From positions 14,806 through 78,805 of IMG/VR virus record IMGVR_UViG_3300035698_008781: 64,000 nucleotides of DNA, one strand, 5' to 3'. Positions within the stretch are counted from its first letter, which is position 1; each line of letters begins with the position of its first letter. The notes beneath the pieces were generated by a model, which was not told where the DNA came from, made no database searches, and saw only the letters and a program-made list of their open reading frames with translations. Below are positions 3,579 through 9,390 of the stretch, in pieces. A program made the position numbers and the translations under genes. The stretch is from a virus.

Positions 3579-3610
3579 CTAAGATAATACTAATAAATGA
3601 GAATTCCAAA
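3579..3610 (-). promoter_or_regulatory. Bacteroidetes-type promoter (near consensus)
   Basis: Minus strand TTTG-N20-TATCTTAG. Confidence 0.55.
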
Positions 3611-3745
3611 TTTTTTTAATTTTTTTAAAATTTTCTTTCTTGAATACGTGACATAAACTAACAAACCCACCCCACTCTTTTTAAATTTTGTATAGTCCCC
3701 GCCATAGGACTACAATAGTTATAAAAACACTTAAATCATTTTATT

Positions 3746-5566: not shown

Positions 5567-5840
5567 AGATAACTACTTTGAAGTAGAATACAATGGACAA
5601 AGAGGATTTGTTCTTGTTAGTGATGAAGAAATTAAAAATGATGTAACTTGTTTATATCATAATAGGTTTGGGAGTTTAATTATTTGTACTTCTAAAAAGA
5701 CAAAAAACGGTTTTGTATACCAAGAAGAAAATGAAACTTATGGACATCCTGATGGGGGAATAACTCCTTTAAAAAATGAAATATCAAAAATCATAGGTTC
5801 TACATTTGAATTAGAAGGTGTTCCTTTAATTGTTTTGTAA
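5553..5840 (+). CDS. hypothetical protein
   Basis: 95-aa ORF. Confidence 0.6.
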   Translation: MKTNKDNYFEVEYNGQRGFVLVSDEEIKNDVTCLYHNRFGSLIICTSKKTKNGFVYQEENETYGHPDGGITPLKNEISKIIGSTFELEGVPLIVL

Positions 5841-5958
5841 AATGAATCAAAATCATTCAAACAATCATAAATTACTTACAAATATACTACTTATTGTAGC
5901 ATTAATATGTATAGTATTAACAATAATTAACTAATATTAACAATTAAATTACAAAAAG

Positions 5959-7623
5959 ATGTTTAACAGCAAACAAAAACAATTATTTAGCAAAAATAAA
6001 AAAACACAAATATCTGGTAATGTATTTATAACAGAAGCTACTAAATCTACATCAGTAACAAGAAGTGAAAACGGTGCTAAAAAATATACTACAACAGGTA
6101 GTGAATTTGTGGATCAATTTAGTAATTTAGGTAACTATAAAACACCTAGATCATTCGCAGATATATCAAGAGATATGTCGACATTATGGGCTATTAATCC
6201 TTTTATGACAGTTGCATTTACATTATTCATTAGAATAATCACTAGAACAACTATGTTATTTACAGGAAAAAAAACTGAAACTACTCAAAGAGGTGCTGGA
6301 TTAAGGTATGAAGGTATAATGAGAATGATGTGGTTACATATATATCATAAAGATATATTTTGGAATAACATTCATCTATTTATATCAGCAGGTTCTTGGA
6401 AAGATATTATTATGATGTTATCATATGATTTACAATATAATGGTTGGGATAAACGACAATTAGATTGGAATCAATTTGGTAAATTAATATTATCTGGATT
6501 AGAAAATCCAAATCATTCTGAATTGATTAAAAAGTATTTACCTCAAATTAAATCAAATAATAAATGTAATACATTAGAAGCTCAAGCTGATAATATAATT
6601 GCTAAATGGATTTGTTCATTATTATTTGGTGAAAAAGATAATGCAAATACTTATAAAAAATATAGAATGTTAAAATCTAAAGGTACAGCTCACCAATGGC
6701 AACAATTAATATCACAAAGTAAACACAACCTTGTTGATTTTAATACAGTACATGGTAGAGCATTATCATTATTAGTATCTGGTAAGTATTTAACTAATCA
6801 AGGCTTAGAATCTAAATATCAAGAATTTATTGAATCTAAACCAATTGCTAAATATACAGGATATGTACATGAATTATTTGAAAAAATAACTCATTCAATG
6901 CCTAAATATCAAATAGATACTTTAAACTCACAATTTAAAGGTTTAGTAGAAACCGCTAAAACAAATGCTACTACAACTACAGGAATGATAGTTGTAAGAG
7001 ATACTTCAGCTAGCATGAGTTCTTTAGCAATAGGTACTAAAACGTCTTGTGGTAATGTAGCAAAAGCATTAGCATTATTCTTTAATGAAATGTTACCTGA
7101 TGGTGTATTTAGTAATAATTGGATAGAATTTAATTCAACTGCTAAAATGTATCAATGGAATGGTTCAACACCTTATGAAAAATGGGTAAATGATAGATCA
7201 AGTTATATTGGGGATACAAACTTTCAATCTGTAATAGATTTATTATGTTCTATTAAGTCTAAAGATATTGATGAATCAGAATTTCCATCAGGTATTATTT
7301 GCATTAGTGATATGGAATTCAATCCATCATCATTAAATCAAACAAATGTTTCAAGTGCTTTAGATAAATTAAGAGGGGTTGGTTTTTCAGACCAATATAT
7401 TAATAATTTTAAAATAGTACTATGGGATTTAGGAAGAAAAAATAAACAAACTAAGTTTGAAACATATGATAATGTTAAAAATACATTCTATTTTAGTGGA
7501 TTTGATGGTTCAATAATGGCATTCTTAACAGGTGTTGAAGGTGCTGAAATGACTCCTCAAAATGCTCAAGAATTATTTAATGCTTCAATGGATCAAGAAT
7601 TAATGCAAATGATTCAATTATGA
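5959..7623 (+). CDS. DUF2828-type TROVE/Ro60-like protein with C-terminal VWA domain
   Basis: Helical N-terminal region (RGAGLR, GSWKD, IAKW) plus VWA MIDAS VVRDTSASM, GDTNF, IICISDMEFN, FSGFD. Confidence 0.75.
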   Translation: MFNSKQKQLFSKNKKTQISGNVFITEATKSTSVTRSENGAKKYTTTGSEFVDQFSNLGNYKTPRSFADISRDMSTLWAINPFMTVAFTLFIRIITRTTMLFTGKKTETTQRGAGLRYEGIMRMMWLHIYHKDIFWNNIHLFISAGSWKDIIMMLSYDLQYNGWDKRQLDWNQFGKLILSGLENPNHSELIKKYLPQIKSNNKCNTLEAQADNIIAKWICSLLFGEKDNANTYKKYRMLKSKGTAHQWQQLISQSKHNLVDFNTVHGRALSLLVSGKYLTNQGLESKYQEFIESKPIAKYTGYVHELFEKITHSMPKYQIDTLNSQFKGLVETAKTNATTTTGMIVVRDTSASMSSLAIGTKTSCGNVAKALALFFNEMLPDGVFSNNWIEFNSTAKMYQWNGSTPYEKWVNDRSSYIGDTNFQSVIDLLCSIKSKDIDESEFPSGIICISDMEFNPSSLNQTNVSSALDKLRGVGFSDQYINNFKIVLWDLGRKNKQTKFETYDNVKNTFYFSGFDGSIMAFLTGVEGAEMTPQNAQELFNASMDQELMQMIQL

Positions 7624-7627
7624 TATA

Positions 7628-8226
7628 AGGTGTAGAATCTGCAAATCATACACAAACAAATATGATAAGCAACAAGCACTACTAAGTATAATAAAAATAA
7701 TAATAATTTTAAACTTTAACACTACACCTGTTAAATTCAAAGTTTAATTGTAAAAGTTATAATAAAAATACAATTAGTAGTGCTTTTAATAAGAATACTA
7801 ACAGCAATTTATAAAGATCAATTTTTTAACTTGAAACCTTATATGTATTCTGATAAAATGATTAATAGCACTCTTACGGTGAAATTGGTAAACACAGGTG
7901 TCTAAAAAAATAATCATTTAATAAATAGTCTAACAGCAATTTTAATAGCTTTTCATGCCGTAAACAGTAGTTCGATTCTGCTAAGACATATAGATATGTC
8001 TTTCGTCTAGAGGCTAGGACAACGTAAAAAATAGACTATTGATAAGAAGTGTAACAGCAAATTTAAACTTTTTTAAAAATAAAAAAACAAATACACTTCT
8101 AATAAGATTAGCAACAGCAAAATAACAAACATCAAATTTTTACTTTGACCAGTTATGCTAATCTGATAAAGTCACTAACAGCAACTCAAACAATTTTTAT
8201 AGGAAAAAAGAAAAAAATAGTGACTT
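7628..8226 (+). ncRNA. tandem array of seven stem-loop RNA units with AACAGCAA motif (Y-RNA-like)
   Basis: Stems 7628-35/7722-29, 7792-98/7845-51, 7856-64/7911-19, 7924-32/8032-40, 8045-53/8092-8100, 8105-13/8156-64, 8169-77/8218-26. Each 5' strand leads into AACAGCAA (five exact copies, two variants). Confidence 0.85.
7949..8024 (+). ncRNA. circularly permuted tRNA-Glu-like domain (YrlA-like) inside an array unit
   Basis: Order: TTC anticodon-like loop, T arm AGTAG-TTCGATT-CTGCT, closed acceptor stem AAGACATA/TATGTCTT, D arm GTCTAGAGGCTAGGAC. Confidence 0.8.
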
Positions 8227-8259
8227 GAGTAAAATATTAACTAACTAATAATAATTATT

Positions 8260-8574
8260 ATGAAAACAATAAAATGTTTTAAAAAAAAAGGTTATAAAAA
8301 ACAACCTACTATTAATGAAATAATTAAATCATTAGAGGAACAAAAAATATATGATCAACTAAGATTAGTTCAACAAACTGAACTTGGTAGAATAAAGTAT
8401 ATATTATCACAAGGTCGTACATTATGTCTAGTACATGTAGCTTATTTAAGAGATTTATATTGGAGCTTTATATCTAATAATTTTAGATTTGAAGATAAGA
8501 TACAAAAAAAAGAAAAAGAAAAAAGAGATAATATTCATCCTGGAATGAAGTTATTTTTATCATTATCGCAATAG
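8260..8574 (+). CDS. hypothetical protein
   Basis: 104-aa ORF. Confidence 0.6.
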   Translation: MKTIKCFKKKGYKKQPTINEIIKSLEEQKIYDQLRLVQQTELGRIKYILSQGRTLCLVHVAYLRDLYWSFISNNFRFEDKIQKKEKEKRDNIHPGMKLFLSLSQ

Positions 8575-8763
8575 TATAATGTAGGTAAATATAAGCCAAC
8601 AAAAGCAAAAGCTTGGGAAGAAAAATAGAATAATAAGTTTTGGTTCTATTTATATTTATAACAACTTTATAGAGAGGTTAAATTATCTCTTGTAGTGATA
8701 GTAGATATGGGTGATTATATGGCGACAGTCACCCATACTATTATTAATTTTTAAAAACAAAAC

Positions 8764-9163
8764 GGGGCAGACTGGTTTTGACAGGTGATTAATAGCAATA
8801 ATAATCAGTGAGAGAGATAACTCTAAACTAAGGTGAATTTAATTAAACGGAAAAGATAATGATCAAATCGTAGCAAATATGAATGTAGTATATAACATCT
8901 TAAATGGTGGTACTGAAGTATCAAAAGATTTAAATACTATTATGGTAGAAGAAGATTTATTGATGGCAGCATAATATTGCCCAAAGCTAGTTGAGGTAAT
9001 ACTAGTAAATTTATTTAAGATTTCTTCATTAGATTAAATGAAGTGGTGGAAGTTAACCTACTGGTTGACCCTTTCTAACGTAAAGAGTTTAAAGAAACGT
9101 GAAACTGTATAAATTATTATTGTAAACATTGCATGGACGAGGGTTCGAGTCCCTCCTGCTCCA
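8764..9163 (+). ncRNA. ssrA: tmRNA
   Basis: 5' GGGGCAGACTGGTTTTGACAGG; 3' T arm GAGGG-TTCGAGT-CCCTC then CTGCTCCA, giving an acceptor stem with the G3-U70 Ala determinant. Internal tag ORF 8849-8974 ends LLMAA*. CCA not encoded. Confidence 0.95.
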
Positions 9164-9180
9164 CAACTAATTCTTAAATT

Positions 9181-9390
9181 ATGAATATTATAGAAATTAA
9201 AGTAGTAACTATTAGTGAAGATCCTGGTAATCCAGGTTTCATTAAAACACAAACTGTTGGTCGACTTGACAAAAGAGTCAATAGACAACAAGATTTTGTG
9301 AGATGGTATTTAGAAATTCATTCTCAACATGGTAATGTTAATTATGAAGTTTTAGATAAGCTAGAAATAGCTAAAGATAGGGTCTTATAG
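9181..9390 (+). CDS. hypothetical protein
   Basis: 69-aa ORF between tmRNA and tRNA; stop overlaps the tRNA 5' end. Confidence 0.55.
   Translation: MNIIEIKVVTISEDPGNPGFIKTQTVGRLDKRVNRQQDFVRWYLEIHSQHGNVNYEVLDKLEIAKDRVL

Follow-up and report, generated by a model that had tools for sequence, protein, structure and literature searches.

The genome of a virus raises the question of what an RNA may be that contains every part of a tRNA, encoded in a permuted order and closed at the end where the amino acid would be attached. The locus lies in a stretch of 64 kb (64,000 nucleotides, hereafter the window, whose positions are counted from its first letter) taken from the 78.8-kb IMG/VR virus record IMGVR_UViG_3300035698_008781 (G+C about 25%, estimated completeness 78%). 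In the window, a gene for a protein of 554 amino acids predicted to be shaped like Ro60 (5959–7623, + strand; DUF7788/DUF2828 family) is followed directly on its 3′ side by an array of six units, each closed by a short stem and conserved motif that we call the handle (7792–8226, + strand, beginning 169 nucleotides past the stop codon). The third of these units, at 7924–8040, holds a circularly permuted tRNA-Glu as its cargo, which had been noticed in a reading of the DNA made before this work (the original prediction). Here, we present the evidence that this unit is probably a Y-RNA-like module, in which the handle would dock the Ro60-like protein and the cargo is a sealed mimic of tRNA-Glu rather than a decoding tRNA.

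A complete tRNA-Glu look-alike in permuted order

The 77 nucleotides at 7948–8024 are an exact circular permutation of a 72-nucleotide tRNA-Glu(UUC). Read from 5′ to 3′ on the + strand, they begin inside the anticodon arm, whose main part occupies 7948–7961 and comprises G30 and C31 (7948–7949), the loop UUUUCAU (7950–7956) with the anticodon UUC at 7952–7954, and G39 to U43 (GCCGT, 7957–7961). A variable loop of four nucleotides, AAAC (7962–7965), in which residue 47 is absent and C48 is present, leads to the T arm (7966–7982), a 5-bp stem with one G-U pair and the loop TTCGATT. The acceptor stem that follows (7983–8002, 8 bp) is sealed: its 3′ strand with A73, AAGACATA (7983–7990), is joined in the DNA by a UAGA loop (TAGA, 7991–7994) to the 5′ strand within TATGTCTT (7995–8002), and CCA is not encoded. 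Then come U8 and C9 (TC, 8003–8004), a Glu-type D arm (8005–8020) and A26, which together span 8003–8021, and finally A27, C28 and G29 (8022–8024), which open the 5′ strand of the anticodon stem and pair with 7959–7961. The original prediction had placed all of its elements correctly, and it was also right about the order of T arm, sealed acceptor stem and D arm and about the pairing of ACG (8022–8024) with CGT (7959–7961). It had overlooked the pairing of GC (7948–7949) with GC (7957–7958) around TTTTCAT (7950–7956), a 2-bp helix that stacks on the ACG/CGT helix and completes a 5-bp anticodon stem with a canonical seven-nucleotide loop (U33, UUC, A37). For this reason its comparison with the YrlA Y RNAs stands only in part: the topology is shared, but there is no protein-binding stem replacing the anticodon arm, since the arm is complete and nicked between positions 29 and 30.

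The tRNA is recovered when the order is restored, as the original prediction had expected. Once 7996–8024 is joined to 7948–7990 and the loop at 7991–7994 is opened, ARAGORN folds the sequence into a cloverleaf and calls a tRNA-Glu(ttc) of 72 nucleotides, while none of 2000 dinucleotide-preserving shuffles is called; in rotations of the circularised 77-mer, calls are obtained only at openings in or near the acceptor hairpin (rotations 39–51). In the native order, neither ARAGORN nor the tRNA model RF00005 matches 7924–8040, even at E ≤ 10. On inspection of the sequence, the bases that make the tertiary contacts of a tRNA are intact (U8, A14, G15 with C48, G18 and G19, T54, T55 and C56, A58, and the pair G53-C61).

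An exact permutation could be explained by a genuine permuted tRNA gene of the kind known in the alga Cyanidioschyzon merolae, whose transcript would be ligated between 8024 and 7948, opened at the acceptor end and used to decode glutamate codons. The product would indeed be a canonical 72-nucleotide tRNA-Glu(UUC), and the viral record, at 78% completeness, contains a gene for tmRNA (transfer-messenger RNA) and a single one for tRNA-Met but lacks an ordinary tRNA-Glu gene. We nevertheless hold this explanation to be very improbable. The chain is broken within a helix strand, on the 5′ side of the anticodon stem (positions 29/30), and from the break to the closing stem there are 15 nucleotides on one side, including the motif ACAGCAA, and seven A-rich nucleotides on the other, with the handle beyond them and no splicing motif. 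The RtcB and Rnl2 families of RNA ligases are absent from the 78%-complete record, and no Rnl1 match was obtained in a search that had no working control. Moreover, relatives of the unit have acceptor stems of 4–6 bp, which would be unusable, and anticodons, such as AUU, that are not natural in bacteria. We know of no bacterial pathway that circularises and reopens permuted tRNA transcripts.

Conservation of the permuted module

Homologues of the Ro60-like protein with 46–69% identity were found in Leptolyngbya phage Lbo-JY46, in five IMG/VR contigs and in 80 metagenome contigs, and 87 related loci (552 kb for the covariance-model search; individual loci are cited by L numbers) form the set in which the module was followed. 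In Lbo-JY46, as well as in IMG/VR and metagenome loci, the homologous gene is immediately followed by a handle array; among the loci whose downstream DNA was read, an array of the same type follows the gene in L001 to L005 and not in L006. A parser found 250 handle units over the 87 loci, some of them inside coding sequence.

Permuted modules were sought by a structural scan with five requirements. A 5-bp stem had to carry the T loop TTCRA and be followed without a gap by a closed hairpin of 4 bp or more; U8 and a D arm containing A14 and GG had to be present; and the bases from position 27 on had to pair with those from position 43 back. This fixed-geometry parse replaced re-permutation at free junctions, which gave many spurious ARAGORN anticodons. 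The scan identified 37 permuted modules with the order T arm, acceptor stem, D arm in 33 of the 87 loci, all on the strand of the gene and none on the opposite one. Furthermore, a covariance model built from six modules gave 58 matches at E ≤ 0.01 in the 552 kb, all on the + strand. In the alignment of these matches, 94.9% of the cells pair, against 57% in shuffled alignments and 41–51% when the partner strand is slid, and 17 of the 18 pairs have changed on both sides; the alignment is fitted to the model, which is a bias toward structure, and the margin is large. Each of the five helices is 88–99% paired. In particular, pairing reaches 99% in the T stem (57 related modules) and 96% in the acceptor-like helix, which covaries in relatives, and the helix of positions 27–29 (90% paired) has changed on both sides in all three of its pairs. 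The permuted tRNA is thus a feature of the family and not of this unit only.

A few matches of the same covariance model fall on the junctions of adjacent genuine tRNA genes, at L009 1039–1114 and L088 783–858, where the matched stretch is the 3′ half of one tRNA and the 5′ half of the next. Adjacent tRNA genes in clusters are a plausible evolutionary route to permuted modules; the usual surroundings of the Ro60-like genes are phage tRNA genes, at times with a tmRNA gene among them. These observations also lend something to the idea that the cargo is a decaying relic, two tRNA genes that lay side by side, or a tandem duplicate, caught between two handle arms and without function. A relic is hardly expected, however, to keep five covarying helices, all more than 88% paired, in dozens of modules, or to retain its tertiary-contact bases, and what links the acceptor ends is a short stable loop, not an intergenic spacer; we give this explanation very little credence.

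In the relatives, the length of the acceptor hairpin varies between 4 and 10 bp; GNRA or UUCG loops cap several of these hairpins, and the module at L004, 5118, lacks the hairpin altogether. Elements that are so variable, capped or lost fit a sealed mimic and not an acceptor of amino acids. For the unit at 7924–8040 itself, a second form of the RNA has to be considered, in which RNase P would cut 5′ of A7996, the 3′ side would be trimmed to A7990 and receive CCA, and the resulting two-piece tRNA-like RNA, its halves held together by the handle stem, the acceptor stem and the ACG/CGT helix, would perhaps be charged by glutamyl-tRNA synthetase. The unit has what we take to be identity elements of this enzyme (U11-A24, U13-G22, A46, absence of residue 47, U34 and U35). 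Its position 1–72 is A-U, against the preference of the Escherichia coli enzyme for G-C. The 8-bp stem may shift or block RNase P, and in the relatives the acceptor hairpin is a 4–6 bp stem, carries a stable GNRA or UUCG cap or is absent, so an open end is not a feature of the family. The model for this form is the YrlA RNA of Mycobacterium smegmatis, the sole YrlA with a 7-bp stem, which is cleaved by RNase P and gains CCA in vivo (PMC4201824). The acceptor of the window unit has seven pairs and a discriminator A, the main RNase P determinant according to Chen et al. (PMC4201824), and therefore the two-piece form, although unlikely, is a live rival for this one unit.

Anticodon loops of the split-stem modules

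The related modules fall into two classes. In about half of them, the plain-helix class, positions 27–31 pair directly with 39–43 and the anticodon loop is absent, which is the topology of YrlA; in the rest, the split-stem class, to which the window unit belongs, the chain breaks after position 27, 28 or 29, and the remainder of the 5′ strand and a seven-nucleotide loop lie upstream. Most of the split-stem loops have anticodons for Glu, Asp, Gln or Lys. The Glu loops are TTTTCAT in the window, TTTTCAC in L082 and ATTTCAA in L066; Asp is represented by ATGTCAC (L007), CTGTCAA (L008) and CTGTCAC (L016), Gln by ATTTGGT (L002), TTTTGGT (second module of L008) and TTCTGGT (L004), and Lys by ATTTTAA (L015) and CTCTTAC (L030). 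The others are CTTGAAA with the anticodon UGA (L050), ATCATAA with CAU (L045) and ATATTAA with AUU (L057).

Every split-stem loop that was examined has U33 and a purine at position 37. All 11 modules of the first set conform, against a background of 0.176 per 7-mer (about 5e-9), and so do three more modules of a wider scan and five more from IMG/VR. These five were retrieved by a pattern scan for a Glu-type D arm with an A-rich exit, their loops read GUC, CUU, UCC, AUC and UCU, and some of them sit on a different handle. In the split-stem modules, each of the five pairs of the anticodon stem occurs as three or four Watson-Crick types. This pattern indicates selection for the anticodon loop alongside covariation of the stems. 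The window and L082 have a Glu body with a Glu loop, and L066 has a YrlA-type body with a Glu loop; bodies and loops are thus freely combined.

The loops weigh against another explanation, by which the compact tRNA fold would be structural ballast that shields a small RNA from nucleases, neither its loop nor its elbow being read by any factor. Chen et al. (2014, PMC4201824) proposed such a role for the tRNA-like part of YrlA, and it would suit the half of the related modules that lack an anticodon loop. It leaves unexplained, however, why every split-stem module has a covarying 5-bp stem topped by a seven-nucleotide loop in which U33 and a purine at 37 are kept, and why the same arrays include short units that carry an anticodon-like hairpin alone. 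We consider ballast improbable as the whole function of the module.

Glu-type permuted modules with canonical anticodon loops were also observed in the IMG/VR phages of L090 (- strand, T-D module at about 3610–3740), L098 and L105, two of these phages being 435–480 kb in size. There the modules sit on a different conserved lead-in, GAUGAGGGUUAUC, in place of ACAGCAA, which may be a second type of handle.

Age and origin of the module

The original prediction had regarded the cargo as recently derived from a real tRNA-Glu, and this part does not hold. The same Glu-type D arm, TCGTCTAGNGGNTAGGACA, and the same junction are shared by the Glu-type modules of the window, L082, L002, L007 and L057, which are closer to each other than to the genuine tRNA-Glu genes that related phages carry (L009, L047 and L050). 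The phages that carry Glu-type modules have Ro60-like proteins 48–69% identical to that of the window and show compensatory changes in the stems. Protein relatives at 81% and 71% identity exist; the closest relative whose DNA was compared is L007 (69%). Between the window and L007, the anticodon has changed from UUC to GUC, both parts of the anticodon stem and the T stem have changed, and the acceptor has gone from 8 to 5 bp, with the fold retained. The presence of related modules in phages whose proteins are so divergent argues against a recent capture. In addition, no donor tRNA-Glu with matching D arm and anticodon arm was found by two exact-pattern scans of 185,579 species genomes, which is weak evidence, as the patterns were strict and natural tRNA-Glu loops usually start with C32.

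The handle and the array

All units follow one plan: a 5′ arm of 7–9 nucleotides, the motif (U/A)ACAGCAA, the cargo and a complementary 3′ arm, with linkers of the type GAUAAG between units. In the third unit, the 5′ arm of the handle (7924–7932) is the perfect 9-bp complement of 8032–8040, and the stem is present in both the minimum free energy (MFE) and the centroid folds. The motif ACAGCAA (7933–7939), invariant in related arrays, follows immediately, and the A-rich linker 8025–8031 and the 3′ arm 8032–8040 close the unit (8025–8040); a DUF2828/DUF7788 gene adjoins, and the unit therefore has all the marks of the handle family, namely a closing stem of 7–9 bp, ACAGCAA directly after it and such a gene alongside. 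The motif is presumed to be the docking site of the Ro60-like protein. Five copies of AACAGCAA stand in the array, and a further one overlaps the start codon of the gene. At the DNA level, a blastn search with the array gave no match among 50,697 phage records.

The neighbouring units are diverse. Unit 1 (window 7785–7851) is about 96% identical to its counterpart in L004 (4830–4896), the Ro60-like proteins of the two phages being 58% identical and the later units different; the arrays look like mosaics in which whole units have been swapped between phages. Unit 2 (7856–7919) has a degenerate motif, AUAGCAC, and carries only a class II-like D arm and an A-rich tail, without a T arm. Its arms match those of unit 2 of L004, which carries a full permuted module with a different D arm; unit 2 looks like a decayed or rebuilt unit, and its derivation by deletion from the full module of L004 was considered and left aside as unsupported, since the arms agree but the D arm differs. 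Short units that bear on their handle only a hairpin resembling the anticodon arm of tRNA-Lys(UUU) were seen at window 8105–8164 (UUUUUAC) and at L003 5562–5624 (CUUUUAA). A third, non-permuted type of unit is found at L001 5795–5888 and in L022, L024, L032, L039 and others: here the handle stem replaces the acceptor stem, ACAGCAA stands in the place of the D arm, and an anticodon-like hairpin, a long hairpin resembling a variable arm and a T arm directly against the 3′ arm follow.

Handle units also adjoin distant DUF2828 genes (22–26% identity) in cultured phages. Staphylococcus phage S-CoN_Ph10 has three right after the gene (L089 3297–3550), and Bacillus phage Tsamsa has three near it (L088 272, 1492 and 1881). 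In the annotation of S-CoN_Ph10, the units are covered by two very small genes for hypothetical proteins, probably erroneous calls made on RNA genes.

The adjoining gene and its predicted product

The unit at 7924–8040 lies 301 nucleotides downstream of the gene at 5959–7623, on the same strand. The 554-residue product, which is presumed to be the partner of the array RNAs, matches PF25043 (DUF7788) at 1.4e-10, beyond the cut-off of this Pfam family, which is the C-terminal domain of DUF2828 proteins; it also matches PHROG 850, 'RNA-binding protein', at 7.5e-29, and falls in viral DUF2828/DUF7788 clusters of the ESM Atlas. Its AlphaFold model, with a predicted local distance difference test (pLDDT) value of 64, gives full-length structural matches (E from 7e-6 to 1e-3) to the TROVE+vWA structures of Thermus phage phiLo Ro60 (9kop and 9l5y), Xenopus Ro60 (1yvp) and Deinococcus Rsr (2nvo), the best being phiLo Ro60. 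On this basis, the protein is predicted to have a Ro60-like fold; the statement concerns the fold and not Ro60 orthology.

A handle-like element was observed over the start codon of the same gene (window 5957–6015). Its arm, AGAUGUUU, which contains the AUG, is followed by one A and then by ACAGCAA, and the partner, AAAUAUCU, lies about 40 nucleotides downstream; the stem has 8 bp, including one G-U pair. The equivalent place in L004 scores 27.3 bits with RF01414, the model of the dictyostelid Class I RNAs discussed below. By such an element, the protein could repress its own translation; a conserved N-terminal peptide, MFNSKQKQ, keeping the same bases, would also account for ACAGCAA at this place.

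Beyond the array, at a distance of 540 nucleotides, lies a standard one-piece tmRNA gene (8764–9166; 52.8 bits, Rfam gathering score 47), for which ARAGORN reads a tag of 22 residues ending in LMAA. No terminator-like site is predicted within 5600–9222.

Proposed function

What, then, would a sealed tRNA-Glu on a handle do? The permuted fold, its conservation and covariation, the linkage to the gene and the prediction of a Ro60-like fold for its product are supported directly by the results given above. From these we infer the following course of events. The array would be transcribed together with the gene or just after it, and the units would be freed at the GAUAAG linkers. The 9-bp stem and ACAGCAA would most likely dock the Ro60-fold DUF2828/DUF7788 protein encoded upstream, and the cargo would fold into a complete L-shaped look-alike of tRNA-Glu(UUC) in permuted order, the RNA chain entering and leaving through the nick between positions 29 and 30. 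As the acceptor end is sealed by a loop of four nucleotides, the RNA is not chargeable as transcribed; as the chain exits through the nick, elbow and canonical anticodon loop are both displayed. The mimic would thereby offer an elbow and a Glu-type anticodon loop to some tRNA-reading factor, most likely a host anticodon-loop nuclease, otherwise a tRNA-modifying enzyme or a synthetase, and would divert this factor or tether it to the Ro60-like ring, just as PNPase is tethered to Ro60 by Y RNA.

The tRNAs for Glu, Asp, Gln and Lys are classic targets of anticodon nucleases. A host nuclease of this kind is favoured because the loops mostly belong to these four tRNAs, because the short units display anticodon-like hairpins only, and because heads and loops are exchanged among phages. 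Going one step further, the sealed mimics may be anticodon-loop baits on a phage Ro60-like ring, which would soak up host anticodon nucleases or capture them for destruction; this more specific proposal is tentative, and we regard it as possible and not as probable.

Several observations weigh against the interpretation of the unit as a Y-RNA-like module with a tRNA mimic. At E ≤ 10 the window unit gives no match to the YrlA model RF02553; its motif is ACAGCAA and not the GNCGAA of YrlA, the sequence GNCGAAN0-1G is absent near the 5′ end, and there is no CGAA outside the T loop. The thermodynamic fold is unremarkable (MFE z = -1.37, which is uninformative), and the minimum-energy structure swaps the D arm for another pairing. 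The protein gives no Pfam TROVE match at E ≤ 0.01, and the confidence of the AlphaFold model is modest, the own model of the ESM Atlas being better (predicted template modelling score, pTM, 0.82). The excess of Glu, Asp, Gln and Lys loops comes from related modules, which are not independent, and Glu-type bodies also bear Gly, Arg and other loops. Finally, the binding of handle and protein is suggested by their co-occurrence, and the target of a decoy or adaptor is conjectural. On balance, the reading as a handle-docked, sealed tRNA-Glu mimic is the one that we consider probable.

Knowledge of Y RNAs with a tRNA-like head dates from 2014. Compared with it, DUF2828/DUF7788, which is annotated in hundreds of cultured phages, represents a second and much larger Ro60-shaped family, and its proteins appear to have partner RNAs of their own, built on another handle. 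A whole tRNA, down to a canonical anticodon loop, can form the tRNA-like head, and the mixing of heads and loops among phages is the pattern expected of a molecule in conflict over specific tRNAs. New here are the division into plain-helix and split-stem modules within the clade, the statistics on U33, on the purine at 37 and on covariation, the argument that there was no recent capture, and the sub-threshold matches of sibling modules to YrlA. Handle RNAs adjoin the gene in culturable phages (Leptolyngbya Lbo-JY46, Staphylococcus S-CoN_Ph10 and Bacillus Tsamsa), so the reader of the tRNA head can be tested for directly. If the bait proposal were true, it would describe an RNA-based counter-defence of an undescribed kind; by extension, the 'V arm' hairpin of YrlA would turn out to be an anticodon arm serving the same purpose, and the Class I RNAs of Dictyostelium would form the eukaryotic branch of the handle family.

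Comparison with known systems

In the literature, no paper describing a system of DUF2828 and handle RNAs was found, DUF2828 receiving only incidental mentions, nor was any paper on permuted tRNAs in phages. Permuted tRNA genes of algae and archaea yield working tRNAs by way of a circular intermediate and the splicing endonuclease, and their breaks are mostly in loops. They were reportedly described by Soma et al. in 2007 in C. merolae, and in some other algae and archaea. As in these genes, the 3′ half of the window unit lies upstream of the 5′ half and a short linker joins the acceptor ends; unlike them, the unit is broken in a stem strand, has a handle attached, belongs to a phage and has relatives with defective acceptor stems.

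Permuted order has a bacterial precedent too. The circularly permuted ssrA genes of alpha-proteobacteria and some cyanobacteria give rise to a two-piece tmRNA. They resemble the unit in encoding a tRNA-like domain in permuted order, but their precursor is cut in two, the product has a chargeable acceptor end and serves trans-translation, and the tmRNA of the window itself is of the one-piece type.

The handle recalls the Class I RNAs of Dictyostelia (RF01414; PMC7919456), which begin with AAG, are closed by a short stem between the 5′ and 3′ ends, have (C)UUACAGCAA by the 5′ arm and a variable middle, and end in CUG. A Class I-like handle was seen at window 7792–8226, L001 5661–6012 and L089 3310–3540. 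With RF01414 (gathering score 41.5), the window units at 8170–8227 and 7793–7852 score 29.9 and 28 bits and neighbours 18.8–29.9, while the unit at 7924–8040 scores 12.5 bits, because its cargo measures 92 nucleotides. Class I RNAs differ in being eukaryotic, 42–65 nucleotides long and without described tRNA-like cargo or a known Ro60-like partner. They have been called unique to Dictyostelia (Kjellin et al., 2021, PMC7919456), and DDB_G0281243, one of four proteins obtained in Class I RNA pull-downs, has no known function (PMC7919456).

Thermus phage phiLo offers the closest parallel for the protein, with a phage Ro60-fold protein and partner RNAs, Yrl1 and Yrl2, beside the gene (PMC12135203; 9KOP, 9L5Y). 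These RNAs differ from the units of the window: their motif is CGAA, their position is upstream of the gene, and they have not been described as mimics of tRNA (PMC12135203).

The comparison that matters most is the one with YrlA (RF02553), which is encoded next to Ro60, bound by bacterial and phage Ro60 (Rsr) and handled by tRNA enzymes (Chen et al., 2014, PMC4201824). Marks of YrlA are a location less than 4 kb from a Ro60 ortholog, both on one strand, and the modifications pseudouridine 55 and dihydrouridine. Both RNAs adjoin a gene on the same strand whose product has a Ro60 fold, a predicted one in the window, and have a terminal stem followed by a conserved single-stranded motif on its 5′ strand; both have the order T arm, closed acceptor-like stem, D arm (PMC4201824), and the window unit has the bases of the tRNA tertiary contacts. 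The less conserved hairpin upstream of the T arm of YrlA was termed the variable (V) arm (Chen et al., 2014, PMC4201824); the hairpin at this position in the related modules is clearly a distal anticodon arm. The YrlA of M. smegmatis shares a 7-bp acceptor-like stem in a permuted tRNA-like domain, with the difference that it has been shown to be cut by RNase P, which most relatives of the window unit could not be. The window unit, in turn, differs from YrlA in its DUF2828/DUF7788 partner without a TROVE match, its tandem arrays, its Glu-type body and its full UUC anticodon arm. With RF02553, sibling modules score from 24 to 49 bits (49.4 bits, E 5e-8, in L032; 46.4 in L066, whose matching module has a split stem and a UUC loop; 42 in L023), below the gathering score of 69. 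The Y-RNA reading of the original prediction is supported by the position of the array after a gene of predicted Ro60-like fold and by these sibling matches, while membership of the unit itself in YrlA is not supported. Since the sibling scores are sub-threshold, the unit is unmatched, and the motif, protein family and array layout differ, the unit is filed outside RF02553, as an RNA that works like a YrlA-type tRNA mimic.

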